From a virus: a stretch of 64,000 nucleotides of DNA. The notes under the pieces are model-generated. The model made no database searches and was not told the origin of the DNA. It saw only the letters and a list, made by a program, of their open reading frames with translations. Of the stretch, positions 17,948 through 47,574 are shown piece by piece (position 1 is the first letter of the stretch; each line of letters begins with the position of its first letter). Both the position numbers and the translations under genes were made by a program. The stretch covers positions 16,857 through 80,856 of IMG/VR virus record IMGVR_UViG_3300023504_000004; one strand, written 5' to 3'.

Positions 17948-17986
17948 GCTCAAAATGGAGAATAACTATTGGAAAGGAGAGATCTT

Positions 17987-20087: not shown

Positions 20088-20256
20088 TGCGCTCGGACTT
20101 ATGTCCGGGTGTCCTAACGGTCGGCGTTAGGTTACATAAGTAGAGTACAAGCTGCTCTAGGTGTGTTTAGTGCGCGCAAAATACATTCACTTGTACAGGT
20201 TTGCCTTCTAATAGGTGTACCCATCATCGATTCCCGTCAGTCTCGGTGATGGTAAA

Positions 20257-32980: not shown

Positions 32981-33145
32981 ATGAATCCAATTTTAATAGG
33001 AGGAATTTTATTATTGGCGGTCGGATTATGGTTCTTGCTGGCATTTGCATTTAAACCAATTGGTGCTTTTATTGAGCATATATGGGGAGATGCAATCGAT
33101 GCCATGAATGATAAAAATAACAAAGAAGAGGAGAAAAAGAAATGA
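32981..33145 (+). CDS. Small membrane protein (54 aa)
   Basis: Unlisted ORF with SD 'ttagaggaggcgatgct'. Hydrophobic N-terminus, K/E-rich tail. 4-nt overlap with the SPFH gene. Confidence 0.4.
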   Translation: MNPILIGGILLLAVGLWFLLAFAFKPIGAFIEHIWGDAIDAMNDKNNKEEEKKK

Positions 33146-34074
33146 GTAAAAGAGGATTATTAGGCGGAGTTACATTAGGCGTATTAATTATCGGATCAGT
33201 AGCAGTTGGGCTTGCTTGTACAGAAAAGATCCCAGCCGGTTATGTTGGGGTTGTATACAACGGTTTATCTGGCGGAGTAGATGGAGAAGTGCTTACTCAG
33301 GGATGGCACTTTGTCGCACCGACCAAGAAAGTTACTAATTATTCCATTGGAATTGAACAGTCGTATCTTACATCTGAAGATAAAGGAGATTCACCAGAGG
33401 ACGAGAGTTTTTCGACTCCAACATCTGACGGCAAATCTTTAAAGGTCGATCTGGAGTTTTCTTATAAATTCGATGCAGACAAGATTGCAGATACATTCGT
33501 AATGTTCAAAGGTCAGTCTGGGAAATCTATTAAGGACACCTTCATTAAGCCGAAAATGAGAGCATGGACTCAGGAAGTTACTGCGAAGTATCCGGTGACG
33601 GATGTATTTGGTGATAAAAGACAGGAACTTAATGAGGCTCTGGATGTATATCTGAAACAGAAATTTGAACCGTATGGCATTATCATTGACACTGTGAACT
33701 TTACAAATATTTCCACTGATACCGAGACATCTGCAGCAATCCAGAAGAAAGTAACTGCGCAGCAGGAACTTGAACTCGCAAACATTGAAGCAAAAACGGC
33801 GAAAGTTCAGGCCGATAAGGATAAGGAAGTTGCCCTGATTGCGGCAGAGCAGGAAAAAGAAAAGGCAGCTATCGTTGCCGAACAGAAGAAGATCCAGGCA
33901 GAAGGTGAAGCCGAAGCTACAAGAATTAAGGCACAGGCAGAAGCTGAAGCGAACCAGAAGATTGCAGCATCTCTTACACCGGAATTGATTCAGAAGCAGA
34001 AATATGAAAAATGGAATGGCGCACTTCCAGATGTTATGGGGAATAACACTCCAATCATTAATATGGGAGAGTAG
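33142..34074 (+). CDS. SPFH/band-7 (prohibitin/stomatin/HflC-like) membrane protein
   Basis: N-terminal TM helix (LLGGVTLGVLIIGSVAVGLA), an SPFH body, and a C-terminal Ala/Glu/Gln/Lys-rich coiled coil (AQQELELANIEAKTAKVQADKDKEVALIAAEQEKEKAAIVAEQKKIQAEGEAEA). Confidence 0.7.
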   Translation: MSKRGLLGGVTLGVLIIGSVAVGLACTEKIPAGYVGVVYNGLSGGVDGEVLTQGWHFVAPTKKVTNYSIGIEQSYLTSEDKGDSPEDESFSTPTSDGKSLKVDLEFSYKFDADKIADTFVMFKGQSGKSIKDTFIKPKMRAWTQEVTAKYPVTDVFGDKRQELNEALDVYLKQKFEPYGIIIDTVNFTNISTDTETSAAIQKKVTAQQELELANIEAKTAKVQADKDKEVALIAAEQEKEKAAIVAEQKKIQAEGEAEATRIKAQAEAEANQKIAASLTPELIQKQKYEKWNGALPDVMGNNTPIINMGE

Positions 34075-34081
34075 TGATTAA

Positions 34082-34234
34082 ATGTTTGAAAATATTTTAA
34101 CTTGGCTCTTACTTGCTGTGATAACATTTGCAGTAATAATTTTAATATCGTGGGTGAGTATATACACGATTCTTGATATTGTTTCTCGTTTGAAGAAATA
34201 TAAGAGCGGAGACAATTGGAGAATAAAACTTTAG
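34082..34234 (+). CDS. Small membrane protein (50 aa), possible NfeD-like partner of the SPFH protein
   Basis: Unlisted ORF 8 nt after the SPFH stop. Sequence MFENILTWLLLAVITFAVIILISWVSIYTILD... Confidence 0.35.
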   Translation: MFENILTWLLLAVITFAVIILISWVSIYTILDIVSRLKKYKSGDNWRIKL

Positions 34235-34306
34235 GTTTTCGATTTTTGCTATTCGTGGTGTCACATCCACGGATAGTATTCCAGAAAATATAAGAGGAGG
34301 AATGAT

Positions 34307-34495
34307 ATGCCGCCACAGACTATTTACACACTTGAGGATAACAAAGAAATTCTTGAGTGTGGACCATTTAAGATCGAAAGAGATAACTTACATAGTGCTG
34401 ATTGGATCGAATTACTGACAATACTTGGTGTTCAGGTTACATGTAATTACAGTGTTAAAGAGGCAAAATTCAAAGAGGTGAAAGAGGATGCTTAG
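34307..34495 (+). CDS. Hypothetical small protein
   Basis: ORF with SD 'taagaggaggaatgat'. Confidence 0.5.
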   Translation: MPPQTIYTLEDNKEILECGPFKIERDNLHSADWIELLTILGVQVTCNYSVKEAKFKEVKEDA

Positions 34496-34709
34496 AATCG
34501 ATTTATGTCAAGCTACTATGCTGGATGACTATGCAAATCTTATTGTAAAAGTGATCCAAAAAGATATCGAAGTAAAGCGTAATAAAATTATTAAGGCACT
34601 AATCGAGGTCGGGTTTTATAGATTAGCATTATGTATGCCGGAAGCGGTGTTACATGACGGTTATGAGGATTGGGTTGAGTTAGTAAAGTTGGTGATTCAA
34701 GATGATTGA
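34488..34709 (+). CDS. Hypothetical small protein
   Basis: ORF overlapping the previous stop. Confidence 0.45.
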   Translation: MLRIDLCQATMLDDYANLIVKVIQKDIEVKRNKIIKALIEVGFYRLALCMPEAVLHDGYEDWVELVKLVIQDD

Positions 34710-34875
34710 AGCGTTTGTAAAAGCACTTACAGTAAATCTGGCAGTTACAGCCATATGGTATGCATCAGAGTGGATGCAATTCGGAGAATTACAATTCAAT
34801 AGGGAGTGCGATAACATCGTAAACACTATTTATCTGTTTGTTTTGTGGTACTTATTTTATAAAAAAGAACGATGA
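34702..34875 (+). CDS. Small membrane protein (57 aa)
   Basis: Unlisted ORF overlapping the previous stop. Two hydrophobic segments. Confidence 0.3.
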   Translation: MIEAFVKALTVNLAVTAIWYASEWMQFGELQFNRECDNIVNTIYLFVLWYLFYKKER

Positions 34876-34902
34876 AATCGATCTTTCGTAGGAGGTGAAA
34901 AT

Positions 34903-35193
34903 TTGGAGTATAAGATTGCAAGGATTCAGCATTCTGGCACATGCGGAGAACGCTGGACTGACCGTGAAGACGGAAGATATATACATAGAGTAGGACGAAC
35001 AGTAGAGCTTGACGTGGAGAATATAGAGGTAGGGATACCGATGATTCTGCATTATGTAAAAGATCAGGATGGTAGTGATTATAGCAGTTTTATTCTTGCA
35101 ACAAGTCGTGTAAAAAGAGTTTCAGTTCCTGATGATAATACGGTTATTGTTGAGACAAGAAATAGTATTTTTAGATTTGAGAAATGTAAGTAA
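34903..35193 (+). CDS. Hypothetical protein
   Basis: ORF with SD 'gtaggaggtgaaaat'. Confidence 0.5.
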   Translation: MEYKIARIQHSGTCGERWTDREDGRYIHRVGRTVELDVENIEVGIPMILHYVKDQDGSDYSSFILATSRVKRVSVPDDNTVIVETRNSIFRFEKCK

Positions 35194-35292
35194 GATAAGA
35201 TTTCATGGGCAGATCGCCCAGATTTCCTCATTAAATTCGAAAGGAGTAAAGAGATTTGCTGCAGCATAAATCCGGATTTGCTCCAAATATGA

Positions 35293-36042
35293 ATGTTAGA
35301 AATTAATAAAATTTACAATCAAGATTGTCTGGATGGTATGAAATTACTTGACGATCATTCTATTGATCTAATTTGTACGGATCTCCCTTATGGTGTTACA
35401 CAAAATAAATCAGATATCGAGATTCCGTTTGAGCCACTATGGGAGCAATACGAGAGAATTATTAAGGAGAACGGCGCAATTGTTTTGTTTGGTCAGGGTA
35501 TGTTTTACATTGATCTTGTGGACTCCAATCGCAAGCTGTTTCGATACGACCTGGTTTGGGACAAGATTCTCACGACAGGATTTCTGAACGCTAAGAAGAT
35601 GCCATTAAGACAACATGAGCAGATTGCTGTGTTCTATAAGAAACCGCCAATATATAATCCTCAGTTTACTGTTGGAAAGCCACTACATAGTCAGGGTAAA
35701 GCTTGTGCTGGCGATGAGATTGTAAACAATAATTATGGAAAATTTGATCGGAATAATAACGGTCGTGCCGGAAGTACGGAGAAATATCCAACCAGTATTA
35801 TTCGAATTCAGAAGCCACATTCCAGTAAAGCAAAGCATAGAACTGCAAAACCAGTTGAACTAATTGAATGGATTATCAAGACATATACAAACCCAGGTGA
35901 GATTGTGTTAGATTCCTGCGCTGGAAGTGGAACTACGGCTATCGCAGCTATGTGCACAGGAAGAAACTGGATCTGTTTCGAGAACGATAAAGACATATAT
36001 GAGGTGGCGAAAGAGAGAATTAAAGAGTATCAGCAGCGATGA
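35293..36042 (+). CDS. DNA methyltransferase, beta-class (N6-adenine or N4-cytosine; motif IV before motif I)
   Basis: 'DLICTDLPYGV' is a D/SPPY-type catalytic motif. The later 'LDSCAGSGTTAIAA' is the SAM-binding motif I. ~249 aa. No partner endonuclease. Confidence 0.7.
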   Translation: MLEINKIYNQDCLDGMKLLDDHSIDLICTDLPYGVTQNKSDIEIPFEPLWEQYERIIKENGAIVLFGQGMFYIDLVDSNRKLFRYDLVWDKILTTGFLNAKKMPLRQHEQIAVFYKKPPIYNPQFTVGKPLHSQGKACAGDEIVNNNYGKFDRNNNGRAGSTEKYPTSIIRIQKPHSSKAKHRTAKPVELIEWIIKTYTNPGEIVLDSCAGSGTTAIAAMCTGRNWICFENDKDIYEVAKERIKEYQQR

Positions 36043-36068
36043 ATTTTTAGTTTCAAAAGGAGATTTAG

Positions 36069-36524
36069 ATGTTAAACAAAGAAAAATTTGCAAAAGAAAT
36101 CATGGAATTAGCTTTGAATCATGAGACTGTCTCGATTACAACTGATGGAAAATTAATCCCATGCGGACAAGTTCCTTGCGATTATTGCAAACTTTATGGT
36201 CATTACGACTGGAGTAGCAGCCCTTCTATTAGGAACAAATGTAAAGGTGCTTTTGTTAGATGGGCAAACTCCGAATATAAAGAGCCAGAAATTGATTGGA
36301 CGAAGGTTCCAGTAGATACACCGGTATTAGTTTGGGACTTTGAGAAAGATAAAGACGAAGCTGAAAGAGTATATTTTTCACGTTACGTAGAAGTTGCAGA
36401 TTATCCTTATGAAGTATTTGACGACGGACGAACCAGTTGGTCGTCAGACGACTATGAAGTGAGTACATGGAGATGTTGCGAACTTGCCAGGGAAGAGGAT
36501 GTTGAGAAATACAGAAAGAGGTAG
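36069..36524 (+). CDS. Hypothetical protein
   Basis: ORF preceded by 'tttcaaaaggagatttag'. Confidence 0.5.
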   Translation: MLNKEKFAKEIMELALNHETVSITTDGKLIPCGQVPCDYCKLYGHYDWSSSPSIRNKCKGAFVRWANSEYKEPEIDWTKVPVDTPVLVWDFEKDKDEAERVYFSRYVEVADYPYEVFDDGRTSWSSDDYEVSTWRCCELAREEDVEKYRKR

Positions 36525-36527
36525 TAT

Positions 36528-36821
36528 ATGGCGAATTATAAACCGTTGACTTGCCAAAGTTTGGAGTGTGATTTCCGGAAATTATGCAGAGCGTTTGGTG
36601 ATATAAATGAGAAAGATTGTGCTCATTATATCCCTCTAAAGTCTGATCCAGCTCCAATCAAATGGGAGAAAGAATATTCAGATTCTACTCTTATGAGTTT
36701 TACAAAAAAACAGCTTATTGAGTATATTCATTGTCTTGTACATAATAACAATGTTTTGCAGGAGACAGTAAATGAGCAAGCTGATATGATGATAAAGATG
36801 TCAAATACACAAAGTAAATAA
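36528..36821 (+). CDS. Hypothetical protein
   Basis: ORF immediately after the previous stop. Confidence 0.5.
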   Translation: MANYKPLTCQSLECDFRKLCRAFGDINEKDCAHYIPLKSDPAPIKWEKEYSDSTLMSFTKKQLIEYIHCLVHNNNVLQETVNEQADMMIKMSNTQSK

Positions 36822-36833
36822 AGAGGAATAAAA

Positions 36834-37205
36834 ATGGAATTTGTAAAACATTATTATCCACCTTTGAAAACACATGTCGAGGCAACAGAGTATCTCAGTA
36901 TAGATGCAAATATAAAATTCGATAACGAGGAAGCATTTTGCGGTAAGCCTCGAATTATCTTAAAAGCTATGTATGATAAACCATTTTTTTCATGGTCTAA
37001 ATATGAAATCGGCGTAGGGATACGAGACGATGATGATTTTGACATTGGATATATTTACAAGCCAACAAAAGAGCAGTTTTTTGACGTTTTGCATGAGCTA
37101 ATTAACTGGATTCATGACCTTGAAATGGGATGCTGCTGTTGGGACGAATTCATCGAAGATCCGAATTTCTTTCCAAATTTGGACTGTGAAAGAGAAAAGT
37201 GGTAA
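36834..37205 (+). CDS. Hypothetical protein
   Basis: ORF with SD 'aagaggaataaaa'. Confidence 0.5.
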   Translation: MEFVKHYYPPLKTHVEATEYLSIDANIKFDNEEAFCGKPRIILKAMYDKPFFSWSKYEIGVGIRDDDDFDIGYIYKPTKEQFFDVLHELINWIHDLEMGCCCWDEFIEDPNFFPNLDCEREKW

Positions 37206-37207
37206 TA

Positions 37208-37606
37208 ATGAAAAAATTATATAGTGTTAGTACGGAGCAATTCTTTTCATACACTACACATCCAGGCATATTTAGTAAAAATAAAGAACCAAAAGTAGAA
37301 AAATATTGGGTGTTAAGAAACAAAAAAATCATTTATGCCGAAAGCGAAAAGATTGCAGAAGAGAAGTACAGTGCGTGGTTTAAAAAGACATATACCGGCG
37401 TGACTCGTGGTTGGGGAGACTGGTATACATGGTCCGATGGAGTGAGCTATAACATGGACGAGGACTGTATCGAAGTTCTCTCAGAGGAATTATTTGCTTC
37501 AGATCTGATTTATGAAAATATTGAAGAACTAAAGAAAAAAATGCAAGCCGAAAATTTCCGAGAATGGTGGTTTGGAGAGAATTACGAACAAAAGAGTGAA
37601 AAATGA
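37208..37606 (+). CDS. Hypothetical protein
   Basis: First non-overlapping ATG of ORF 37199-37606. Confidence 0.5.
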   Translation: MKKLYSVSTEQFFSYTTHPGIFSKNKEPKVEKYWVLRNKKIIYAESEKIAEEKYSAWFKKTYTGVTRGWGDWYTWSDGVSYNMDEDCIEVLSEELFASDLIYENIEELKKKMQAENFREWWFGENYEQKSEK

Positions 37607-37659
37607 AATGATTATTGATGCACTTCAGGAACAACTAAATAAATTGGAGGATTAAAATT

Positions 37660-38520
37660 ATGCCAGTACATGATGATCTTGGTCTTCGCATGAAGACTTT
37701 TTATGAAGAAATTCCAAAAACAAAATTAATGCGGCGCTGCCCTGTTGCGATCAGAATTGACGGAAAAGCTTTTCACACGTTTACGCGCAAATTCCAGAAG
37801 CCATTTGACGAGATCTTGATCGAATCTATGCAGGAAACTATGAAATACCTGTGTGAAAATATCCAGGGATGCGTCTTAGGCTATACCCAGTCTGATGAGA
37901 TCACATTGATCTTGGTTGATTATAAGAAGCTGACATCTGTAGCCTGGTTCGACTATGAAGTTCAGAAGGTTTGTAGTATTGCGGCTTCCATGGCAACTAT
38001 GGCATTTAATAGAAATTTTAGAGATACAATTGATTTAGCTTACGATCAGGAATTTCGTGATTTAGGCTTAAATAAAGAACCAGATAAGAGTCAGGAAGAT
38101 GATTATAATAAAAAGTTTGAAGTATTAGAGAAAAAGTATGACAAGTATTATTCTCAAATCGATAAGGCGATGTTTGACGCCCGTTGCTTTAGCATTCCAA
38201 AAGAAGAAGTAGCAAACCTGATCTATTGGCGGCAGCTTGACGCCACACGCAACTCTATTCAAATGGTTGGACAAGCCAATTTCTCACATAAGGAACTTCA
38301 GAATAAGTCTTGTAACCAGATTCAGGATATGTTAATGGTTCAGAAAAGCATTAATTGGAATAATTTCCCGACTTATCAGAAGAGAGGAAGCTGTTGTATT
38401 AAAGAGGAGAAAATGATTGAAGACCAGATGAGAAGTAGTTGGATTATCGATACAGAAATTCCAATCTTTAAGGGTATTGATAGGGATTATGTTGAGAAAC
38501 GAATTCTTATTGGAGAATGA
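37660..38520 (+). CDS. Thg1-like protein (tRNA-His guanylyltransferase family 3'-5' nucleotidyltransferase)
   Basis: N-terminal 'CPVAIRIDGKAFHTFTRKF' matches the Thg1 signature (RxDGrxFxxFt). Total size matches Thg1/TLP. SD 'aaattggaggattaaaatt'. Confidence 0.6.
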   Translation: MPVHDDLGLRMKTFYEEIPKTKLMRRCPVAIRIDGKAFHTFTRKFQKPFDEILIESMQETMKYLCENIQGCVLGYTQSDEITLILVDYKKLTSVAWFDYEVQKVCSIAASMATMAFNRNFRDTIDLAYDQEFRDLGLNKEPDKSQEDDYNKKFEVLEKKYDKYYSQIDKAMFDARCFSIPKEEVANLIYWRQLDATRNSIQMVGQANFSHKELQNKSCNQIQDMLMVQKSINWNNFPTYQKRGSCCIKEEKMIEDQMRSSWIIDTEIPIFKGIDRDYVEKRILIGE

Positions 38521-38552
38521 TAAAATTACGCTTTCAACAGGAGAATATATAA

Positions 38553-38888
38553 ATGGCAACATATGAAAGACTGTACAATGAGAAGGGTGAGTTGGCAGTA
38601 TTGTATGGAAGTTTTTGGAGTACCGACGATGCTGAATTGCACAATTTAAAAGGTGAAGAAGCGTATCGGCTGGCTCTGGATAAAAGAGTTATAGAGTTCT
38701 GGCAGTCCAACAAAGATTTCTACGACATGTTGGACTTCTTAAAAAGTATTGGATACAACTGGCCAAGTGGAGAACCGGATAGACAAAAATTAGCTTGGAT
38801 TCCCAAAGGGACACCATTTTATATTCATACATATGACGGTGATGAAACAATTGAGACACCAGAAAGTTGCAACATGATTATAGCGTAG
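38553..38888 (+). CDS. Hypothetical protein
   Basis: ORF preceded by 'ctttcaacaggagaatatataa'. Confidence 0.5.
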   Translation: MATYERLYNEKGELAVLYGSFWSTDDAELHNLKGEEAYRLALDKRVIEFWQSNKDFYDMLDFLKSIGYNWPSGEPDRQKLAWIPKGTPFYIHTYDGDETIETPESCNMIIA

Positions 38889-38898
38889 GAGTAGAAAC

Positions 38899-39081
38899 AT
38901 GATATATATAGCATATGCTGTAGCATGGATTGCCACCGCTGTAGCAGTAATTTTCGGAATTAAATTAACAGGGTCAGCATGGTGTTTATGGGCTTTCTTT
39001 TTTCCGGCTGGCATTAGTTTATCTCACAACAAAAAAACTGATAATAACGATGAGGCGGACAGACATGATAAAGATGAATAA
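38899..39081 (+). CDS. Small membrane protein (60 aa)
   Basis: Two hydrophobic helices (IYIAYAVAWIATAVAVIFGI ... WCLWAFFFPAGISL). SD 'gtaggagtagaaac'. Confidence 0.45.
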   Translation: MIYIAYAVAWIATAVAVIFGIKLTGSAWCLWAFFFPAGISLSHNKKTDNNDEADRHDKDE

Positions 39082-39282
39082 AATAAGCATTTCAGGAGGT
39101 GTAACAGCACGAAAGTAATTCAAAACAATTATAAAAAAGAAGAGAATAAAAGAGTAGAGAAAAATACTTTTATTACATATTGTGACCAGTGTAATTCTGA
39201 GCTTGAAATCACAAAAGAAGATACTCATATTGGTTGGCTCGGTGCTCGATTTGTAACCTGTCCATGCTGTGGAGAAGAATCT

Positions 39283-39648
39283 ATGGTTGAAGAGCTGCAA
39301 GGCATTACTCTTACAAAAGATAATATCCAGTTTCCTGCGCATTTTTACAGAACAAAAACAGGGAAAATTGGTGTTAAGGAGGTTACAAATCAGAAAGTCG
39401 TAGATGAAATAAAGCGAGGAATTGAGTGGCTACGGAGTGAAAAGAATGAATATTATTGGTTTACAAAATATGGAGACCTCTTTCTAATTATATTTAAACA
39501 CGATGGAGGCGGAAAATATAACGTGTTGGTTACGAGGGACTGGTATGAAACAGATATCCCATTCGAAGAAGATGATTACAAATGGGATGAGAAAAGGCTT
39601 TCAGAAGATGATGACGACATGGGGTGGGGAGGAGATGATAATTTATGA
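39283..39648 (+). CDS. Hypothetical protein. The ORF is open upstream to 39082 and there encodes a zinc ribbon, but no canonical start codon is present.
   Basis: Listed ORF from the first ATG. The in-frame upstream stretch (39082-39282) encodes ...YCDQCNSELEITKEDTHIGWLGARFVTCPCCGEES... It follows the SD 'tttcaggaggtg' (39088-39099) but contains no ATG, GTG or TTG. Confidence 0.45.
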   Translation: MVEELQGITLTKDNIQFPAHFYRTKTGKIGVKEVTNQKVVDEIKRGIEWLRSEKNEYYWFTKYGDLFLIIFKHDGGGKYNVLVTRDWYETDIPFEEDDYKWDEKRLSEDDDDMGWGGDDNL

Positions 39649-41258
39649 CGGATTTAGAAACTTGGTTCCTTGATTTTGGCGATGATCATATTTTCAGATT
39701 ATACGATCCATTTTCAATTCGCGTAGTGGAAAAAGTGCGAATTAATAATATGATTGAACTTCCAAACAAAGATGTACTAATTGAATATTCGGAAGTTAAT
39801 AGCGAAGAAGATTTTAATGCAGAATGGGGTAAAGCACCTTTATGTTATAAAAACTCAGTGAGATCAAATTGGAGTATCATCCGCATGATAATCAATTTTG
39901 TTCAAATGCAACTGCCTTACCAGCAACCGAGTAAAGGAGAAAAAATGAGTTGGAATCCTGTGCTGAATAAATTTATTGAAATAAAAAATACATATAAAAA
40001 TAAAATTGGCGAACCAACCTATTCTTATAAATCTGGCTATACAGATGAATCAAAAACATGTCTCGAGCGATGGGTTGAAGAGTTAATTGAAAAATTCCCA
40101 GATAAGCAATTCCAGCAGTACGAAGAACTTCTTTCTTGCTTGGAAATGAATCAATGGAATCAGTTTTTGATAATTAGATATGCCAGATATAGTAATGTAT
40201 ATGACGGTGAGGTCGAGTCTTCTGGCGAAGATTTTTGGGACAGATATAGCGGATTTTATAGAGAATGCAGGAGTGTTGTTATTGACGTTGTAAATGATAA
40301 AATTGTATTAGCACCATTTAAGAAATTTTTTAACATCAATGAACTTGAAGAAACTCGTCTGGAGAATGTAGAACGCAGAATTGCTACCGCGACAAATGTT
40401 GAATTTTCTAATAAACTTGATGGCTCAATGCAATCGGCAACGTGGTATGATGGTCGGATTATTATGGCTGGAAGTCAGGCAATTGATCCAAGTAATTCAT
40501 GGAGATTGCAGGAAGGTTATAGAATGCTTGATTTGCGTCCAGGTTATAAGAGAATGCTGACCGAACACCCTGGTCTGACTTTTATTTTTGAATATATTTC
40601 GCTTAAAGACGCTCATGTTGTTAAATATAAAAAAGAGCAAGAGGGACTATATTTGATTGGCGTGAGAAACAATAATGACGGCAGAGAGTTACCGTACCGT
40701 TCTGTTTTAGATGTCGCATATGTTTATAATATTCCAACAACGGAGATTTTTGATAAAACATTAGACCAGGTAATGGCAGAACTTGATGAAAAATCTTCTG
40801 ATGAAGCAGAAGGGTTTGTCATTAACATTGATGGATATAAGGTTAAAGTCAAGTACAATGACTACGTTCATATCCATAAAGCTTTATCTAAATCATCCTC
40901 AATAAATCTAATCATTAAGTCTATTGCAGACGATACGTTCGACGACCTTCTTTCGAAACTTCCAGAAGCTTATCATGACAATGTAAAAAGAGTTGCAAAT
41001 ATTGTTTTTAATTATATTTGTGACACTGAGAATATCATTAGAAAATATTATAACGAAGCGCCAAAGAACGATAAAAAGAAATTTATGATTTGGGTCAATT
41101 CTAATGTTCCCAAAAAATATCGCGGATTCTGTCGATCTTTGTATCTCGGAGATCCAATTAATGTATTAAAAAAACATAATGGTTCTGGCTATTTAAAACT
41201 TAAAGATATGGGTATCGAGGATTATGGAAAACTATTTGTAAACAATGAGAACGAATAA
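39645..41258 (+). CDS. ATP-dependent RNA ligase (Rnl-type nucleotidyltransferase)
   Basis: Motif I 'SNKLDGSMQSA' (KxDG). Motif IV/V 'EGFVINIDGYKVKVKYNDY' (EGxV...KxK). 537 aa. Start overlaps the upstream stop (ATGA). Confidence 0.65.
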   Translation: MTDLETWFLDFGDDHIFRLYDPFSIRVVEKVRINNMIELPNKDVLIEYSEVNSEEDFNAEWGKAPLCYKNSVRSNWSIIRMIINFVQMQLPYQQPSKGEKMSWNPVLNKFIEIKNTYKNKIGEPTYSYKSGYTDESKTCLERWVEELIEKFPDKQFQQYEELLSCLEMNQWNQFLIIRYARYSNVYDGEVESSGEDFWDRYSGFYRECRSVVIDVVNDKIVLAPFKKFFNINELEETRLENVERRIATATNVEFSNKLDGSMQSATWYDGRIIMAGSQAIDPSNSWRLQEGYRMLDLRPGYKRMLTEHPGLTFIFEYISLKDAHVVKYKKEQEGLYLIGVRNNNDGRELPYRSVLDVAYVYNIPTTEIFDKTLDQVMAELDEKSSDEAEGFVINIDGYKVKVKYNDYVHIHKALSKSSSINLIIKSIADDTFDDLLSKLPEAYHDNVKRVANIVFNYICDTENIIRKYYNEAPKNDKKKFMIWVNSNVPKKYRGFCRSLYLGDPINVLKKHNGSGYLKLKDMGIEDYGKLFVNNENE

Positions 41259-41285
41259 CAGGGAACAAGAAAAAACGAGGTAAAA

Positions 41286-42215
41286 ATGACAATCAAAGAC
41301 ATTGAAACAAAACTTTCGCCTAAACCATCACTCTATGTTATGTGCGGGCTTTCCGGAAGTGGAAAATCCACCATTGCAAAAGAGTATCAGAAAAAGATTC
41401 CTGGTAGCGTGATTATCTCTTCTGATGAGATTAGAGAGGAATTGTGTGACGGAAACCGTGCGGATCAGAGTAAGAACGACGAAGTGTTTAGAGTATTTCA
41501 CGATAGAATCCGAAAAAATTTGGAGAAACATAAGAGTGTAATCGTAGATGCAACCAATATTACAATGAAGTCCCGTAGAGCTATTCTGGGCAAAGTAAAC
41601 GGTCTGGATATTAACAAGATTTGCCTGATCGTTCCGAAACCATACGAGCAATGCCTGGTTGACAACAAACAGCGTGAGTGGCCGGTTCCTGATGAGGTGA
41701 TTGAACACCAGCGCAGTCGGTTCCAGATTCCATTCAAGGAGGAAGGTTGGACGGAGATTAGAATTGAGAGTGGATTTAAGGATCGGCCATATAGATTCGA
41801 TGAGATGATGAAAGGGTATGATCAGAAAAGTCCATATCATGCCTTTACTTTAGACGAGCATTGTCAACTTGCGGCTGACATGTTCTTCGACATCAAAGGG
41901 TATAGACAGCCATGGTATGCTGGAGCACTACTGCATGATGTCGGAAAACTGTTTACGCAGACTATCGATGAAAACGGTGTAGCTCATTACTACTCGCATG
42001 AAAACGTCGGCGCATATGAGATTCTATCATTAAAGCCGAATGAAGAGGATATTGTAGACATTTGTTTCCTGATTAATTATCACATGCTACCGTTCAGTTG
42101 GAATCTTAATTGGCGCGAGCCGACGAGAACTATGAAGAGATGGCAGCGTAGGTTTGGAGAAGAGAAGTATCAAATGTTGTTAGACTTCCATGAGTGTGAT
42201 ATGGCTATGGCGTAG
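41286..42215 (+). CDS. Polynucleotide kinase (P-loop) fused to an HD phosphohydrolase domain
   Basis: Walker A 'CGLSGSGKST', Walker B-like 'VIVDATN'. C-terminal HD motifs 'LDEH', 'LLHDVGK', 'YSHEN', 'INYHM'. SD 'aaaacgaggtaaaa'. Confidence 0.65.
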   Translation: MTIKDIETKLSPKPSLYVMCGLSGSGKSTIAKEYQKKIPGSVIISSDEIREELCDGNRADQSKNDEVFRVFHDRIRKNLEKHKSVIVDATNITMKSRRAILGKVNGLDINKICLIVPKPYEQCLVDNKQREWPVPDEVIEHQRSRFQIPFKEEGWTEIRIESGFKDRPYRFDEMMKGYDQKSPYHAFTLDEHCQLAADMFFDIKGYRQPWYAGALLHDVGKLFTQTIDENGVAHYYSHENVGAYEILSLKPNEEDIVDICFLINYHMLPFSWNLNWREPTRTMKRWQRRFGEEKYQMLLDFHECDMAMA

Positions 42216-42227
42216 GAGAATAATCAT

Positions 42228-42617
42228 ATGGAATATACAAAGTGGGAAGACGGCAAAGTTAAGCATGTGCTCGATTTTGATAGATGCATCGAGTCTCTGA
42301 TGGAAAGAAATGCTGATCAGGACAAGCGAATCAAAAGCCTTGTGGAAGAAAATAAACGTCTCAAAAGTGAGCATTATAAAGACACAGAATTGCAGAATTT
42401 ACAACAAAAATATGACGAACTGAAGAAGGATGCTTACAGAGGTTTCACTATCACCGAAGAAGAAAGTAAGCATATCTATGAGTGGAAATATAAGCACGAG
42501 ATGCAGGAACACCTAAGAGCAAGTTACACCTATATTTTCGCACCTACCGCATTAGGGTTGGTTGGTAGAATTAAATGCTCATGCGGTGCAGAATTTGATT
42601 TTAGGAAACTGGAATAG
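42228..42617 (+). CDS. Hypothetical protein
   Basis: ORF preceded by 'gtaggagaataatcatATG'. Confidence 0.5.
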   Translation: MEYTKWEDGKVKHVLDFDRCIESLMERNADQDKRIKSLVEENKRLKSEHYKDTELQNLQQKYDELKKDAYRGFTITEEESKHIYEWKYKHEMQEHLRASYTYIFAPTALGLVGRIKCSCGAEFDFRKLE

Positions 42618-42629
42618 GAGAATAATACT

Positions 42630-43022
42630 ATGGTTGATCGTTTGAAAATTATGTGCAATAAAAACTCGTATGGCAATTTAGTCGAAGAAATTATTATGAT
42701 TGCAATTGAAAGTGCGTTAGAGGAAATTTCTGAAAAAATGCGTACTCGGCTGGAATGTAGATATAATTGGTTGGGAGATACGGACGGCTTATACCATTCG
42801 AATGGGTCTACGGAATTTTTGAGTATTCACTTAAAGGAATATCGTATTGCATTAAGCGATTGTCAATATAAAAATATTTATACGCTTATTGAAAATATTT
42901 TACAAGAGAAACTATACGATAGAGAAGATACAGATAGCAATACAGCAGTTGTTTATTTACATAATTGCATTTTGGATGGATCCGATATTGTCGTTAGTTT
43001 AAACATTGTAATGTTGAAATAA
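42630..43022 (+). CDS. Hypothetical protein
   Basis: ORF preceded by 'ataggagaataatactATG'. Confidence 0.5.
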   Translation: MVDRLKIMCNKNSYGNLVEEIIMIAIESALEEISEKMRTRLECRYNWLGDTDGLYHSNGSTEFLSIHLKEYRIALSDCQYKNIYTLIENILQEKLYDREDTDSNTAVVYLHNCILDGSDIVVSLNIVMLK

Positions 43023-43060
43023 ATCTTTCAAATGAATAAAAAAGGAGCAACAAAAAAAAT

Positions 43061-43525
43061 ATGAAATTCAAAGGCAATATCATTATTACAGACCCATGTT
43101 ATATTATTCGCAAAAATAGTGACGATTGGACTAAGTGTGGTTGTGGTGATTTTATGGAGAATCTGGGAATTAAGAATTATTTATGTAGAGATACAATTTA
43201 CGGTGATTGGTCTTGTACTACTTTTAATTTAGACACAAAAAAAGAAATTGGAGAATTCTGTGCCGATGCTGGTCTGGTCGCAGTGTTCTTACTTGATGAG
43301 GTATTAGCATACAATCCAGATTTTGATTGGTATGAATCCAAACCTTGGACGACGACGTTAATCAGAGATTTTGATGGTGACATTGAGATGAAGGTCATTC
43401 ATATAGAAGGTATTTATGATGAAGATACTGAATGGTATGAAAAAGGTGAAAAATGGACAGACGATTTCTTAAGTGTTGTCGGCACAGGTAATATCAATTT
43501 TGAAACACACCAGACGAGATTTTAA
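43061..43525 (+). CDS. Hypothetical protein
   Basis: ORF with SD 'aaaggagcaacaaaaaaaat'. Confidence 0.5.
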   Translation: MKFKGNIIITDPCYIIRKNSDDWTKCGCGDFMENLGIKNYLCRDTIYGDWSCTTFNLDTKKEIGEFCADAGLVAVFLLDEVLAYNPDFDWYESKPWTTTLIRDFDGDIEMKVIHIEGIYDEDTEWYEKGEKWTDDFLSVVGTGNINFETHQTRF

Positions 43526-43557
43526 AGACGTTAAAATGTGTTTTTCAGAGGATAATT

Positions 43558-43755
43558 ATGATTAGAGAAATATGTGATGTTTGTAAGAAAAATGATGCTG
43601 ATGAGAAATATTGTTTTCAAAAGTCAACAAGAATTAAATATCAAAATACTTCGCGAGGAATTGGACTTTTTCGTCTACCAGATTGGACGACTTATGAAAC
43701 GATCATGATTTGCCACGAGTGTGCCGAGAAGTTATTTGAAATTAAAAATGGCTGA
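43558..43755 (+). CDS. Zinc-ribbon protein
   Basis: CDVC...CHEC pairs. Preceded by 'ttttcagaggataatt'. Confidence 0.45.
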   Translation: MIREICDVCKKNDADEKYCFQKSTRIKYQNTSRGIGLFRLPDWTTYETIMICHECAEKLFEIKNG

Positions 43756-43772
43756 AATAAAGAGGGTAACTT

Positions 43773-43937
43773 ATGTATTGTTTAGATTATGAATTAACAG
43801 AGTGTGGAGTAAAATTATGTTGCTATGATTGTAACAATAAGCAATGTAATAAAAAATGCGAACTCGAAAAAGATATATGCGATTGCCTGTGGTTATTAGA
43901 ACCAAATCCAACTGATGAGCAATACACACAAGACTAA
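43773..43937 (+). CDS. Cys-rich micro-protein (54 aa, 10 Cys)
   Basis: Unlisted ORF with SD 'aaagagggtaactt'. Sequence MYCLDYELTECGVKLCCYDCNNKQCNKKCELEKDICDC... Confidence 0.35.
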   Translation: MYCLDYELTECGVKLCCYDCNNKQCNKKCELEKDICDCLWLLEPNPTDEQYTQD

Positions 43938-43966
43938 AACCTGCGTTTCAAAAGGAGAAAGAACAA

Positions 43967-44197
43967 ATGAAAATTAAGAGAAAAAATAGTGAAAAAGTGG
44001 AAGTTTCAACACTTGACATTGGTGATTGTTTTGAGTTTGCAAATGAATTATTTTTAGTAATAAAAAATAATTTCGATGAGATAGTCGTCGATAAGCCAAT
44101 GCATGTTTTGGTAGTAAATTTAGGAGAAAACGAGCTGGATGATTTTACCCCAAGTACACATGTAAAAAAAGTAAATGCTAAAATTGTTGCCGAGTAA
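43967..44197 (+). CDS. Hypothetical small protein, paralog 1 (C-terminal ...VNAKIVAE)
   Basis: ORF preceded by 'tttcaaaaggagaaagaac'. Shares its C-terminal motif and length with 44258-44479. Confidence 0.5.
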   Translation: MKIKRKNSEKVEVSTLDIGDCFEFANELFLVIKNNFDEIVVDKPMHVLVVNLGENELDDFTPSTHVKKVNAKIVAE

Positions 44198-44257
44198 GAG
44201 GTTCAGTATGTTTTTTACATGGTATAAGAATAGAATCGAAAAAAGGAGAAGAAATAA

Positions 44258-44479
44258 GTGAAGATCATAAACAATTATGGCGGGAAAAGAAAATTAATTA
44301 AGGATGTTTTAGTAGGACAGTGCTTCATGTATAGTGATCGGTTATGCATGAAAGTAAAGTCCAACACATCAGACGAATACTATAATAATAAAATCGTAGA
44401 TTTTGAAAACAATGAAATAAATGCAATTGCAGATTCGGCAGAAGTTTTGGTTATTAATGCAAAAATTGTTATTGAGTAA
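44258..44479 (+). CDS. Hypothetical small protein, paralog 2 (C-terminal ...INAKIVIE)
   Basis: ORF with SD 'aaaaggagaagaaataaGTG' (a GTG start is shown in the listed ORF). Confidence 0.45.
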   Translation: MKIINNYGGKRKLIKDVLVGQCFMYSDRLCMKVKSNTSDEYYNNKIVDFENNEINAIADSAEVLVINAKIVIE

Positions 44480-44516
44480 CCGATGAAATTTTGCTTTCGA
44501 AGGGAGAATAAGGTGC

Positions 44517-44771
44517 ATGGCTAAAAATCCGACTTCAGTTCTTATTGGAGAAAACTGGGAATATCCACTGGACATGGAAGACTGCATAGAATTGGTCAAA
44601 AAGTATTTCAATGACAATCTCGCTGGAGCTATTGAATATTTTTACGCATTGAAGATTAATGAGTTAAGTTCCGAAATTGACAGTTTACATGACGAGATCG
44701 AAGATCTCGAAGAAGAAGTAGATATGCTTAGAGATCTGGAAGTAGATCCAGTAGAAACCTGGGATTATTAA
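44517..44771 (+). CDS. Hypothetical acidic protein
   Basis: ORF preceded by 'ctttcgaagggagaataaggtgc'. Confidence 0.5.
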   Translation: MAKNPTSVLIGENWEYPLDMEDCIELVKKYFNDNLAGAIEYFYALKINELSSEIDSLHDEIEDLEEEVDMLRDLEVDPVETWDY

Positions 44772-44784
44772 GGAGAATAAACAT

Positions 44785-45150
44785 ATGATTCAGAAGTGTA
44801 GAAAATGCGGATCTTTATCATTATTTACTGAACAGAAGGGTTCGAATATTGGTCTGTACTGTAGGTCTTGTGGATCATGGCAGAAATGGCTAAATAAAAA
44901 CGAGGCGCGATTATTTTCGGAGAATAATAAAGTAGAAGGATCGTGTATTCAGGTCGACGATGTACTCAGAGATAGGTTGGAAGAGTTTGTAAAGGCACTC
45001 GATGAAATGATTAACAAAGAATTCTCAAAAGAACCTATTAGCGATATGGATGCTATGCGTAAATCGGCATATTGTCTCGCATTAGAACGCGATAAGAATT
45101 CTATTATTAATATTCTCGAAGGAAGAAAATACTGGGAGATGGGAGAATAA
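44785..45150 (+). CDS. Zinc-ribbon protein
   Basis: CRKCGS...CRSCGS. Preceded by 'aaggagaataaacatATG'. Confidence 0.5.
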   Translation: MIQKCRKCGSLSLFTEQKGSNIGLYCRSCGSWQKWLNKNEARLFSENNKVEGSCIQVDDVLRDRLEEFVKALDEMINKEFSKEPISDMDAMRKSAYCLALERDKNSIINILEGRKYWEMGE

Positions 45151-45154
45151 ATAT

Positions 45155-45541
45155 ATGGAAGATTTAGACCTTAAGCCTTTACATGGTCAAATCAAAAAAG
45201 TTGAAATGACATCTATATCTGGCTACATAAAAAATCAAAAAATATATTTAGAGTTATATATAAAAGCAGAAACGGAGACAAAAATTTATAAATTTAAAAT
45301 TGCTGGGTTTGATACCGGAATCAAGTTTGTAAATGCGTATTTTGATGAAACGCAATCAATAAAAGATTGTGGAGAGCACTTACCGCCTATTAAAACGATT
45401 GAAAAGAAATTAGAGTTAAACGGGAAACAGTATTCAATTGATGATATTACGTTTATGGGAGCCGAAAGCAAACCTAAAGAAGTGACCATGGCTGATATCG
45501 AAGAAAAATTTGGTTGCAAAGTTAAGATTATAGGAGAATAA
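45155..45541 (+). CDS. Hypothetical protein
   Basis: ORF preceded by 'gggagaataaatatATG'. Confidence 0.5.
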   Translation: MEDLDLKPLHGQIKKVEMTSISGYIKNQKIYLELYIKAETETKIYKFKIAGFDTGIKFVNAYFDETQSIKDCGEHLPPIKTIEKKLELNGKQYSIDDITFMGAESKPKEVTMADIEEKFGCKVKIIGE

Positions 45542-45545
45542 ACGT

Positions 45546-46367
45546 ATGACATTATTAGATGGAAAAGCGGCAGCTCAGGAAGTAAAAGACTATTTAAAGA
45601 AGATTGTTGACTTAGGAGTTCATCGGAAACTTGTGATCGTGCAGGTGGGTGATAATCCGGCATCGAATACATATATCAAAAATAAGGTTAAAGCCTGTGA
45701 ATATGTCGGCGTAGAATGCGAGGTAAAACACTTCGAAGAGAGCATTACAGAAGAAAAATTACTCGATGAAATCGATGTTTTAAACGATGACAATTCTGTT
45801 GATGGCATTATCGTTCAGTTGCCACTTCCAGAGCATATCGTTGAAGGACGAGTTACCAATGGGATTAAACCCATTAAAGACGTTGATGGATTCACAAATA
45901 TCAATGCAGGACGATTAATGCATGGTGGTTGTCTCTTTTTTCCAGCTACACCGCTTGGTATTGCAACGTTGCTTGAGAAATACAACATCGAGACAGACGG
46001 CAAGGAATGCGTAATTGTTGGGAGAAGTAATATTGTAGGAAAACCAATGGCTCTCCTGATGCTCGACAAGAATGCGACAGTTACGATTACCCATTCCTAT
46101 ACCAAGAACCTTAAGGAAGTATGCAAGAGGGCTGATATCCTAATCGTCGCAATCGGCAAACCTAAGATGATTAATAGAGAATATATTAAAGAGGGAGCTG
46201 TTGTAATCGATGTAGGAATCAACCAAGACGAGAACGGTAAGCTTTGCGGAGATGTGGATTTTGATGATGTAAAAGAAATCGTATCAGCGATCACACCGGT
46301 TCCTGGCGGTGTCGGTCCAATGACAGTGGCAATGTTACTGAACAATGTGGTAGGAGGAAGAAAATAA
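45546..46367 (+). CDS. folD: Bifunctional 5,10-methylene-tetrahydrofolate dehydrogenase / methenyl-THF cyclohydrolase
   Basis: Co-linear FolD signatures: 'LDGKAAA', 'LVIVQVGDNPASNTYIKNK', 'DGIIVQLPLP', 'DVDGF', 'PATPLG', 'GRSNIVGKPMALLM', 'ITPVPGGVGPMT'. 273 aa. Confidence 0.85.
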   Translation: MTLLDGKAAAQEVKDYLKKIVDLGVHRKLVIVQVGDNPASNTYIKNKVKACEYVGVECEVKHFEESITEEKLLDEIDVLNDDNSVDGIIVQLPLPEHIVEGRVTNGIKPIKDVDGFTNINAGRLMHGGCLFFPATPLGIATLLEKYNIETDGKECVIVGRSNIVGKPMALLMLDKNATVTITHSYTKNLKEVCKRADILIVAIGKPKMINREYIKEGAVVIDVGINQDENGKLCGDVDFDDVKEIVSAITPVPGGVGPMTVAMLLNNVVGGRK

Positions 46368-46428
46368 ACAATATGGTGTGGTGCTGGATTTCGATTCAGT
46401 GCTACACCAGAAAAGAGAATAAATATAT

Positions 46429-46500
46429 AGCGGATTAGTGTAATGGTTAGCACGGGAGACTTTGGATCTCCAGACGTGAGTTCGAATCTCACATCCGCCG
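46429..46500 (+). tRNA. tRNA, anticodon loop 'cTTTGga' giving UUG (Gln-like). A1·C72 mismatch.
   Basis: Hand-folded: acceptor agcggat/atccgcc, U8, D-arm gtgt-aatggtta-gcac, anticodon stem ggaga/tctcc, variable agac, T-arm gtgag-TTCGAAT-ctcac, discriminator g. Confidence 0.55.
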
Positions 46501-46564
46501 TTAATAAATACAATTTGGGAGGTAGATACTTATTTATAGCGATTGGAAAAACGAATATAAAGAT

Positions 46565-47431
46565 ATGGGAGATTATTATATTGGATATACTCCTAAAAAC
46601 AAAACTGAATACTATTTTGACAAAGAATGTTTTGATGTTGTGAAACAGTATAAATGGAGAGTCAACAGCGATTTATATCCAATAACATTTGTTGATGGAA
46701 AAGAAATTTCTATGGTTACATTACTTTTTGGAAATAGTCCTCATACCTATAAAAATGGTAAGAAGAATGATTTACGAAAAGAGAATATATGTAATATAAA
46801 AGGATTTAAAGATAAAGGACGTGTTTTCCTTAATGGATATGTGTCAATTTATATGCCAGAACATAAACGAGCATTTGATAATGGATGCGTATATGAACAT
46901 ATCCTTGTAGCAGAACGAACGTTGGGCAGAGAATTGAAGCCTGATGAATGTGTTCATCACAAAGACCAAAACAGAACAAATAACTCACCAGAAAATTTAA
47001 TGGTCTTCGCGACAAATAATGATCACGTAGCTTTTCACGGAGGAGCAAAAGCGATTCTTACTGACGAAGGAAATTATAAAACAGAAAGATTGGGAATTCC
47101 TGTATATATTTATAGAAATAGAACCGCCAAAGATATAAAAAACAACATTAAAGATACTGGCAGTGTTTATGTTCCAGGATACAATTTATGCCCTTGCTGT
47201 AACGAAAATATTAAATCAAGCGATGCAAAAATGTGCTTAGAGTGTTACAGAAAATTACGAGTAAAAAATATTCCCAAAAAGGAAGAATTAGAAGCGTTGA
47301 TCTATCAAGAATCTTTTGAAGAAATTGGGAGAATGTATAAAGTGTCTGGAAAGGCTGTAACAAAATGGTGTAAAAAATATGGTTTACCATCTCGACGTTC
47401 AGAAATAAATAAAATTTTAGCGACAAAATAA
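46565..47431 (+). CDS. HNH homing endonuclease
   Basis: 'CVHHKDQNRTNNSPENLMVFATNNDHVAFH' is an HNH core. C-terminal 'CPCC...CLECY' zinc finger and an HTH-like tail. Lies between two tRNA genes. Confidence 0.7.
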   Translation: MGDYYIGYTPKNKTEYYFDKECFDVVKQYKWRVNSDLYPITFVDGKEISMVTLLFGNSPHTYKNGKKNDLRKENICNIKGFKDKGRVFLNGYVSIYMPEHKRAFDNGCVYEHILVAERTLGRELKPDECVHHKDQNRTNNSPENLMVFATNNDHVAFHGGAKAILTDEGNYKTERLGIPVYIYRNRTAKDIKNNIKDTGSVYVPGYNLCPCCNENIKSSDAKMCLECYRKLRVKNIPKKEELEALIYQESFEEIGRMYKVSGKAVTKWCKKYGLPSRRSEINKILATK

Positions 47432-47442
47432 AGTCGCTATAT

Positions 47443-47531
47443 GCGAACTTAACTCAACTGGTAAGAGTCACGGCCTTATAAGCCGTATGCCCTGGCAAGG
47501 TTTAAACTCGGTTCGACTCCGAGAGTTCGCA
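47443..47531 (+). tRNA. Type II (long variable arm) tRNA, apparent anticodon UAU (loop cTTATaa), 89 nt
   Basis: Acceptor gcgaact/agttcgc, D-arm actc-aactggtaa-gagt, anticodon stem acggc/gccgt, ~20-nt variable arm with internal tgcc/ggca stem, T-arm ctcgg-TTCGACT-ccgag, discriminator a. Confidence 0.55.
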
Positions 47532-47574
47532 CTGCAGCAATGCAAATATAATATTTTAAAGGAGGATTTCTATT

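Follow-up and report, generated by a model that had tools for sequence, protein, structure and literature searches.

How would a phage of gut bacteria mend tRNAs that a nuclease has cut, and which of its genes belong to the repair machinery? The question is raised by a 64,000-nucleotide stretch of the IMG/VR virus record IMGVR_UViG_3300023504_000004 (positions 16,857 to 80,856; hereafter the window), in which genes for a Thg1-like protein (TLP), an RNA ligase and a kinase fused to an HD domain (kinase-HD, or Pnk-HD) lie between positions 37660 and 42215. An interpretation made earlier from the letters alone (the sequence-only reading) had taken the three for one RNA-repair cassette of a kind not previously described, and the three open reading frames (ORFs) were indeed found where it had placed them, on the plus strand and with every motif that it had quoted. 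The one well-studied case of tRNA repair by a phage is T4 Pnkp/Rnl1, directed against the nuclease PrrC, and its relevance has been renewed by tRNA-targeting defences (PrrC/RloC, Cas13a collateral cleavage). Retron- and PARIS-type systems also target tRNA. Here, we read the locus as a tRNA/RNA break-repair island that has a heal-and-seal core of ligase and Pnk-HD, to which the TLP is loosely linked as an accessory, and we put the probability of this reading at roughly 0.72.

Families were called by profile searches (Pfam, PHROG, NCBIfam/TIGR), structure-chain alignment and predicted folds, and family membership, catalytic residues, predicted folds, linkage and indel history were all established in silico. 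For the Thg1-like protein, the RNA ligase and the kinase-HD alike, profile, catalytic-residue and fold evidence agree with the family first assigned, and the profile scores are far above what chance would give. Related loci fetched for comparison carry L-numbers (for example L087, L186 and L196). With the kinase-HD as anchor, 323 IMG/VR contigs were positive, and the loci compared are 80 of these 323; upstream ligases were counted in the 78 of the 80 that have sufficient upstream DNA. With Thg1 as anchor, 80 loci were compared, in which Thg1 is 61-72% identical to that of the window. A scan of bacterial genome collections reached only close homologues in Lachnospiraceae.

The core of the island is defined by linkage. 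An RNA ligase gene lies immediately upstream of the kinase-HD gene in 77 of the 78 viral-contig loci, which bears out the proposal that the two form a healing-and-sealing pair. The ligases in this slot belong to three families that are unrelated to each other (L092-L171, L189-L196), namely 36 with an OB (PHA02142) plus PF09414 make-up, 25 of the Rnl1 type and 16 short PF09414 proteins, and an RlaP-like nucleotidyltransferase gene stands between ligase and kinase-HD in 24 of the 25 Rnl1-type loci. A first tblastn tally, with about 30 kinase-HD loci apparently without a ligase, was rejected, given that these loci hold the third ligase family, which is invisible to BLAST with the other two. The kinase-HD family is hosted by Lachnospiraceae phage contigs of ~90-220 kb, and its pairing with a ligase is also seen in Bacillus phages from culture (Tsamsa/Thrax-like and others) and in Lachnospiraceae genomes. 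The conserved unit is thus ligase plus Pnk-HD. That the healing enzyme stays the same while the sealing enzyme varies is as a functional partnership would predict, and as context it speaks strongly for Pnk-HD as the enzyme that prepares RNA ends for ligation.

The window's sealing enzyme (39945-41258, plus strand) is an ATP-dependent, Rnl1-like RNA ligase of 437 residues that matches PF09511 (RNA_lig_T4_1) at 9e-25 and carries KLDGS at residues 157-161, EGFVI at 289-293 and KVKVK at 299-303. We place its start at 39945 because its homologues (at least 120 listed, of ~430-450 residues, one of them 98% identical) all begin MSWNPVLNKF and a Shine-Dalgarno sequence, AAAGGAG, lies 6 nucleotides before that ATG. 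The alternative ORF of 537 residues is a frameshift artefact whose extra 100 codons are a small upstream gene; a novel N-terminal domain of the ligase was hence rejected. The nucleotidyltransferase residues K157, E216, E289 and K301/K303 (motifs I, III, IV and V) are invariant in 22 homologues, as are R109, K127 and F128, which correspond to R54, K75 and F76 in T4 Rnl1's N-terminal sub-domain. Likeness to T4 Rnl1 is seen in both profile and fold, the predicted fold being closest to T4 Rnl1 and fungal tRNA ligase. With 62.2 bits against the trusted cutoff of 242 for the T4 RnlA equivalog (TIGR02308), the ligase represents a divergent Rnl1-like clade and not an RnlA orthologue. A C-terminal domain specific to Rnl1 defines the Rnl1 clade and confers tRNA specificity (PMC6379707); the window ligase is classed as Rnl1-like by profile, residues and fold, with no firm correspondence between its C-terminal domain and the one that gives T4 Rnl1 its tRNA specificity. 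In one relative (L164), a TnpB/IS605 OrfB transposase is inserted in the ligase gene.

The adjoining gene (41286-42215, plus strand) encodes a predicted bifunctional end-healing enzyme of 309 residues, with an N-terminal 5'-OH polynucleotide kinase (residues ~14-160) and a C-terminal HD phosphoesterase (residues ~180-309). It matches AAA_33 at 3e-22 over residues 16-149, the kinase part of TIGR04075 (bacterial Pnkp) at 2e-17, and PF01966 (HD) at 8e-6 over residues 208-276 (26.6 bits, cutoff 22); CGLSGSGKST occupies residues 20-29 and LLHDVGK residues 215-221. The kinase residues K27 and S28 (P-loop), D47 (general base), R50 and T90 (acceptor binding) and R130 (lid) correspond to K21, S22, D38, R41, T80 and R120 of Clostridium thermocellum Pnk (CthPnk), and among 26 homologues D47 is kept in at least 90% and R50 in 100%. 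The predicted model has, in its kinase half, the fold of 5'-OH polynucleotide kinases of the CthPnkp/T4 Pnk type. Its other half has an all-helical HD fold with the metal-ligand motif H...HD...D and invariant H185, HD217-218, H234, H238, H266 and D305. A HAD (DxDxT) match was not found in the C-terminal half, where PF01966 falls, and the phosphatase is thus an HD domain rather than the HAD type of T4, as the sequence-only reading had stated.

The present arrangement in the window is a derived one. Over 34241-43029 the window is collinear with L196 (89-92% nucleotide identity) except for a 1,013-nucleotide RlaP gene, and in L189-L196 a PF10127 RlaP gene separates ligase from kinase-HD (in L192, RlaP and Pnk-HD are present with no ligase directly upstream). 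What is left of it in the window is a deletion scar: the kinase-HD gene opens with 11 codons (MTIKDIETKLS; 41286-41318, plus strand) that are identical to the first 11 of RlaP in L190 (L190:7407-7438), and the residues that they encode have a low predicted local distance difference test score (pLDDT) in a model with pLDDT 90. The spacer and ribosome-binding site upstream of RlaP in L190 are also common to the window, and L190, L193 and L196 have 1013 nucleotides extra at this place. The window has thus lost RlaP by an in-frame deletion of ~1 kb that joined 11 RlaP codons to the kinase-HD core and, because the collinear L196 keeps RlaP and the window has the scar, it is an RlaP-deleted form of a four-gene cluster. 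Among near-identical genomes the TLP gene is present or absent, the ligase is of type A, of type B or missing, and RlaP is present or absent; Pnk-HD is constant. The block of 83% nucleotide identity common to L087 and the window (39934-42638) has its left edge at the ribosome-binding site of the ligase.

The third protein (37660-38520, plus strand) is a bacterial-type TLP of 286 residues, predicted from profile, residues and alignment to be a 3'-5' template-dependent nucleotidyltransferase. It matches PF04446 (7e-29; 100.8 bits, cutoff 29.2) and phrog_4717 (1e-88), with the motif RIDGKAFHTFT at residues 32-42. Its closest solved structure is the TLP of Bacillus thuringiensis (BtTLP; PDB 4kgk) at 8e-65, compared with 3e-8 for human Thg1, which places it in the repair-type TLP clade and not with the eukaryotic, tRNA-His-specific Thg1. 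All catalytic and nucleotide-binding residues of BtTLP, as given in PMC3701042, are shared: D30/D75/E76 (three metal-binding carboxylates), R28, K43, S74, K99 and R131 correspond to D34/D79/E80, R32, K47, S78, K103 and R175. The active site is intact, and templated 3'-5' activity is predicted. BtTLP itself repairs 5'-truncated tRNAs in vitro (PMC3701042). The Thg1 C-terminal domain profile PF14413 scores 16.8 bits, under its cutoff of 26.3; the alignment to BtTLP reaches residue 238 of 245. Unlike BtTLP, the phage TLP has an insertion of ~42 residues (123-164; window 38026-38151) between its two conserved halves, which is variable and the least conserved stretch of the protein among related phages.

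Does the TLP belong to the same unit as the other two? The sequence-only reading had put all three into one cassette, a view that is borne out in part: the TLP gene lies just upstream of the module in the sub-lineage of the window, but mostly at a distance in the wider clade. In L193-L196, from four other samples, Thg1 stands at the same position upstream of the module; L193, L194 and L196 (TLP 94-96% identical) share the order Thg1, o111, small ORFs, Rnl1 ligase, RlaP (PF10127), Pnk-HD, o129 and o130, and L195 is laid out like L193 but with an OB/PF09414 ligase. A trio of Thg1, ligase and kinase-HD unique to the window was accordingly rejected, given that these four share the layout, plus RlaP. 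Three other close relatives show that Thg1 comes and goes as a precise single-gene indel. L186, with 95% nucleotide identity from o111 to kinase-HD, is without window 36064-38517, Thg1 included, and L189 and L190 keep both flanks and have ~600 nucleotides of other sequence exactly in place of the Thg1 gene (37613-38516); the flanks of these three Thg1-less loci are 82-96% identical to the window. Thg1 was undetected in all fetched DNA of L087, L186, L187 and L189-L192. The Thg1-like gene is a separate single-gene insertion that was gained or lost independently.

This history favours an explanation that we rate at slightly less than even odds, in which the TLP works apart from ligase and Pnk-HD, perhaps on the quality control or maturation of host or phage tRNA 5' ends at large, and its nearness reflects a common hotspot. 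This accessory-gene hotspot would have Band_7 and methyltransferase genes on one side and FolD on the other. A ligase or kinase-HD gene lies within 8 kb in only 14 of the 80 Thg1-anchored loci (none in 66), Thg1 is within 10 kb in 3 of the 80 kinase-HD loci, and on the 14 contigs common to both top-80 lists kinase-HD is 7-23 kb upstream of Thg1, an order opposite to that of the window. Many cultured phages also have Thg1 without kinase-HD among the matches listed. Against an independent TLP stand its proximity to the module in several configurations, which are the window type, L090/L091 (Thg1, 3.8 kb, ligase, RlaP-like gene, kinase-HD), L008/L140 and L049; the known bacterial Thg1-PNK and ligase-Thg1 operons; and the TLP substrate, a 5'-phosphate end, which is the product of the kinase. 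No tRNA-His gene was found in the window or in the 38 related loci that were scanned; this speaks against tRNA-His maturation as the role of the TLP, and that candidate function was rejected.

From this gene content we infer the substrates, the order of reactions and the role in counter-defence. A host or competitor ribonuclease would cut a tRNA and leave 2',3'-cyclic-phosphate (or 3'-phosphate) and 5'-OH ends, from which the HD domain of Pnk-HD would take off the 3'-terminal phosphate and its N-terminal kinase domain would phosphorylate the 5'-OH. The Rnl1-like ligase, adenylylated at Lys157, would then seal the 3'-OH/5'-PO4 nick. The ancestral module, beyond the view of the sequence-only reading, also had RlaP, encoded between the ligase and Pnk-HD genes and predicted in the literature to restore the nucleotide lost at the break. 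The TLP, with its gene 1.4 kb upstream, would rebuild missing 5' nucleotides of the tRNA acceptor stem with the 3' strand as template, and the Pnk domain could provide the 5'-phosphate that it needs. The TLP is thus predicted to share the functional theme as a separately mobile element and not as an obligate component of the module. A closer tie is doubtful: the TLP may be a working partner of Pnk-HD and ligase in the window lineage, where a host nuclease would remove tRNA 5' nucleotides and leave a 5'-OH, Pnk would phosphorylate this end and the TLP would rebuild it on the 3' strand as template, a second, ligase-independent route. The whole island would then be a combinatorial counter-defence, in which TLP and RlaP are optional, the ligase is of one of three families and Pnk-HD is constant, tuned to the tRNA nucleases of different Lachnospiraceae hosts. 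If so, the TLP would be the sole remaining restorer of lost nucleotides in RlaP-deleted genomes.

Several points weigh against our reading of the island. In most relatives Thg1 and the module are unlinked, as the counts above show, and the literature searched gave no experimentally characterised Pnk(N)-HD(C) protein of this family and no such phage TLP. The site aligned to Lys119 of T4 Rnl1, a residue that we take to be important there, is a Gln in the ligase family of the window. Scans for promoters and terminators were no better than on shuffled sequence and hence uninformative.

Who benefits from the repair is a further question, and it depends on the phage. The region originates from a large phage of Lachnospiraceae, a group of gut bacteria. 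Its DNA is 36% GC, with positive GC skew along the whole length and co-directional genes that encode Pol III alpha, a RecD-like helicase, RecJ, a primase-like protein, FolD and a sigma factor, besides methyltransferases, a Band_7 protein, a tyrosine recombinase and four tRNAs. Relatives of this Pol III alpha-encoding phage (L090, L173) are embedded in large contigs, one of 4.99 Mb from a metagenome and one of 3.04 Mb from Konateibacter massiliensis, and relatives are also present in Lachnospiraceae isolate genomes. The recombinase gene and the relatives inside bacterial contigs suggest a large temperate phage. The same observations, together with comparable Bacillus phages that are temperate (PMC9703825), could mean that the module mainly benefits the lysogen by repairing tRNA or rRNA cut by the colicin-like, contact-dependent-inhibition or toxin-antitoxin ribonucleases of competitors, instead of countering an abortive-infection nuclease in lytic growth. 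We consider this unlikely as the main role, given that the repair genes are located in the co-directional early/replication arm, amid phage metabolic genes, and that the swapping of ligases, RlaP and TLP resembles an arms-race locus, a pattern compatible with either scenario. Benefit to the lysogen and the tRNA/RNA break-repair island as we propose it are not mutually exclusive.

The activity of the HD domain is predicted from its associations, and a different chemistry has to be weighed here. The domain could be a hydrolase of nucleotides or signalling molecules, or an HD-type oxygenase, and the P-loop domain could phosphorylate another substrate: the nearest folds of the HD half are PhnZ, TmpB and MIOX, its Pfam score is modest, and the P-loop domain also matches tRNA kinases of the KTI12/PSTK type. 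We regard this as improbable. The acceptor residues of 5'-OH polynucleotide kinases are kept (the Asp general base and the equivalents of Arg41 and Thr80), among proteins with structures the HD half is nearest in sequence to the HD regions in 3wfo-3wfs, deposited as 'Poly A polymerase' or 'tRNA processing enzyme', NCBIfam gives a weak CCA tRNA nucleotidyltransferase match over the same stretch, and the near-universal adjacency of an RNA ligase would have no obvious rationale. In addition, HD-Pnk of Runella slithyformis is a precedent for 2',3'-phosphoesterase activity in an HD domain joined to Pnk. The ligase linkage, the similarity to 3wfo-3wfs and, weakly, to CCA-adding enzymes, and the Runella precedent together point to the window's HD domain as a probable 2',3'-cyclic phosphodiesterase/3'-phosphatase. 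Least probable of all is the repair of DNA ends. In its favour, the crystals of CthPnk contained DNA oligonucleotides, Runella HD-Pnk has been described as healing DNA/RNA ends and the pair is near a DNA ligase in Bacillus phages. Against it, each of the three families of partner ligase is one of RNA ligases (PF09511, PF09414), RlaP is a nucleotidyltransferase associated with RNA repair and has RNAs as substrates, and the closest folds of the ligase are T4 Rnl1 and fungal tRNA ligase.

How new is such an island? T4 Pnkp/Rnl1 counters the anticodon nuclease PrrC, as cited in PMC7824862 and PMC9703825. T4 Pnkp has a DxDxT HAD acylphosphatase, whereas the window has a metal-dependent HD domain and a kinase nearer to the Clostridium thermocellum Pnkp clade than to T4 Pnkp; its ligase, at 62 bits against the 242 of the RnlA equivalog, is distant, and its ligase and Pnk-HD genes are adjacent, unlike those of T4. 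Closer in kind is Runella slithyformis HD-Pnk (Munir & Shuman 2017), a characterised end-healing enzyme that, as described in PMC6097658, combines an HD 2',3'-phosphoesterase with a P-loop 5'-OH polynucleotide kinase and is encoded by a gene that adjoins and overlaps an ATP-dependent ligase gene. By that description, which is the basis of the comparison rather than sequence, the HD domain of the Runella enzyme is N-terminal, whereas in the window the kinase is, and the Runella cluster is bacterial, with Tpt1 and an MTase-HIT protein.

Operons of ligase, RlaP and kinase/phosphatase were surveyed by Burroughs & Aravind 2016, as summarised in PMC7824862 and PMC12776372, and the close relatives L189-L196 have ligase, RlaP and Pnk-HD in a row. 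The window differs from the surveyed ligase-RlaP operons by its RlaP deletion and its setting in ~90-220 kb, not jumbo, phage contigs. HD-like phosphatases, RlaP and Thg1 are named as phage RNA-repair components in PMC7824862. For Thg1, bacterial Thg1-PNK and RNA ligase-Thg1-Macro neighbourhoods were reported in 2010 (Anantharaman, Iyer & Aravind, PMC2904730), together with the prediction that the kinase makes the 5'-phosphate used by Thg1. In Coprococcus eutactus the order is RNA_ligase, Thg1, Thg1_C and Macro, with an HD gene nearby and a Thg1 that is 80% identical to that of the window over 110 residues. Those neighbourhoods are recorded as bacterial, in another gene order and with Macro, whereas the window is from a phage and has no Macro in the cluster.

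In Tsamsa/Thrax-like (Tyrovirus) Bacillus phages, an Rnl1-family ligase is directly followed by a kinase-HD in which the domains come in the same order (26-30% identity, 81-96% coverage), and these phages are large and temperate, as is probable for that of the window, and likewise have their own Pol III alpha. The Tyrovirus ligase and 'polynucleotide kinase' were interpreted by their authors as T4-like tRNA repair and a PrrC-type counter-defence (PMC9703825). The Tyrovirus pair is distant in sequence and has no adjoining Thg1, although PK-3 and FADO have Thg1 elsewhere in the genome. A megablast of the 6-kb region against GenBank phages found no match. PADLOC on the island proteins gave a weak P-loop match for the kinase-HD (VakA, 4.5e-5, residues 18-85) and none for the other nine, and identity with a known anti-phage defence system was rejected for want of PADLOC support.

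The claim that the combination is undescribed is therefore not supported, preceded as it is by the neighbourhoods of PMC2904730, the components named in PMC7824862 and the Tyrovirus ligase/kinase pair. Comparative genomics has already described the parts and the logic predicted for them, and the island is another example and not a new kind of system. New here are the setting of the Lachnospiraceae cluster in a phage, its combinatorial variation about an unchanging Pnk(N)-HD(C) and the RlaP deletion scar. Abundant phages of human-gut Lachnospiraceae thus carry a different healing enzyme, Pnk-HD, which is held constant while ligase, RlaP and TLP are swapped, and their natural, isogenic-like variants (the window with TLP alone, L196 with TLP and RlaP, L190 with RlaP alone, L186 with neither) make the contribution of each accessory enzyme and the role of the TLP in vivo testable. 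The value of the locus is that of an experimental entry point, not of a new principle.

Three small genes and a frameshifted remnant lie between Thg1 and the ligase, all on the plus strand. The first, o111 (38553-38888), has no Pfam, PHROG or PADLOC match; it follows Thg1 in L193-L196 (in L197 a 117-residue ORF takes the slot) and is also present in the Thg1-less relatives L186, L189 and L190. The second, o60 (38899-39081), encodes a small hydrophobic, membrane-like protein without a family match and is kept in L186. The third (39112-39648) encodes a zinc-ribbon-like protein and extends an ORF ('o121', 39283-39648) upstream: homology to ~200-residue proteins of L158 (58% identity) and L088 (49%) runs past the ATG to 39112 and spans CxxC...CxxC. 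AGGAGG is present at 39094, yet no ATG, GTG or TTG follows the stop at 39079, and the gene is either 5'-truncated or has a non-canonical start. Its homologues adjoin the kinase-HD gene in L158 and are a few kb away from it in L088 and L057.

The stop of the zinc-ribbon-like gene overlaps the start of the next ORF, the frameshifted remnant (39645-39944) of a gene of 96-101 residues that is separate in L186, L193 and L196, where it ends at or overlaps the ligase start. A run of A5 at 39849-39853, compared with A6 in L186, the closest relative, puts this small gene into the frame of the ligase and could be a true mutation or an assembly error. Downstream of Pnk-HD, o129 and o130 (42228-43022, plus strand) travel with the module in close relatives and have no family matches: a 129-residue ORF follows kinase-HD in L087, L189, L190, L192, L193, L195 and L196, and the next ORF has ~130 residues in L193, L195 and L196 and 149 in L087.

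The tRNA genes of the window were considered as a source of TLP substrates, given apparent 8-bp acceptor stems, and this candidate was rejected because ARAGORN over-extends the stems; the Rfam coordinates leave off a base on either side. Read as 7 bp, the acceptor stems have U1-A72 or an A1·C72 mismatch, plus G73, and show nothing unusual. U1-A72 or A1·C72 with G73 is typical of tRNA-Gln. tRNA-Gln(UUG) occurs twice in the window (among 46428-46501 and 20015-20088) and is the most recurrent tRNA across related phage loci (L022, L046, L064, L067, L073, L090, L186). Unusually for an Ile tRNA, the tRNA-Ile(UAU) at 47443-47532 has 90 nucleotides and a long variable arm. Two of the tRNA genes flank a gene for an HNH endonuclease (46565-47431), and the tyrosine recombinase gene (17969-18742) is ~1.3 kb upstream of a tRNA-Gln/tRNA-Leu pair.

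Relatives also carry genes related to NAD near the island, with a Macro domain and a PARP-like ADP-ribosyltransferase downstream and NAPRTase and NAD synthase upstream (L192:10314-11978; L193:1-2027; L090:1-2452), possibly as additional counter-defence functions; these four were not seen among the window ORFs scanned. The upstream part of the window encodes a weak GmrSD_N-like protein (21678-23174), a radical-SAM protein (28971-29861) and a DUF4942-containing methyltransferase (1907-3550). In the Fusobacterium phages Fnu1, FNU2 and FNU3 (the last being L006), a Thg1 with 47% identity lies amid a DNA adenine methyltransferase, FolD and prohibitin/Band_7, a gene set comparable to window 33142-46367 that hints at distant kinship or a common accessory region.

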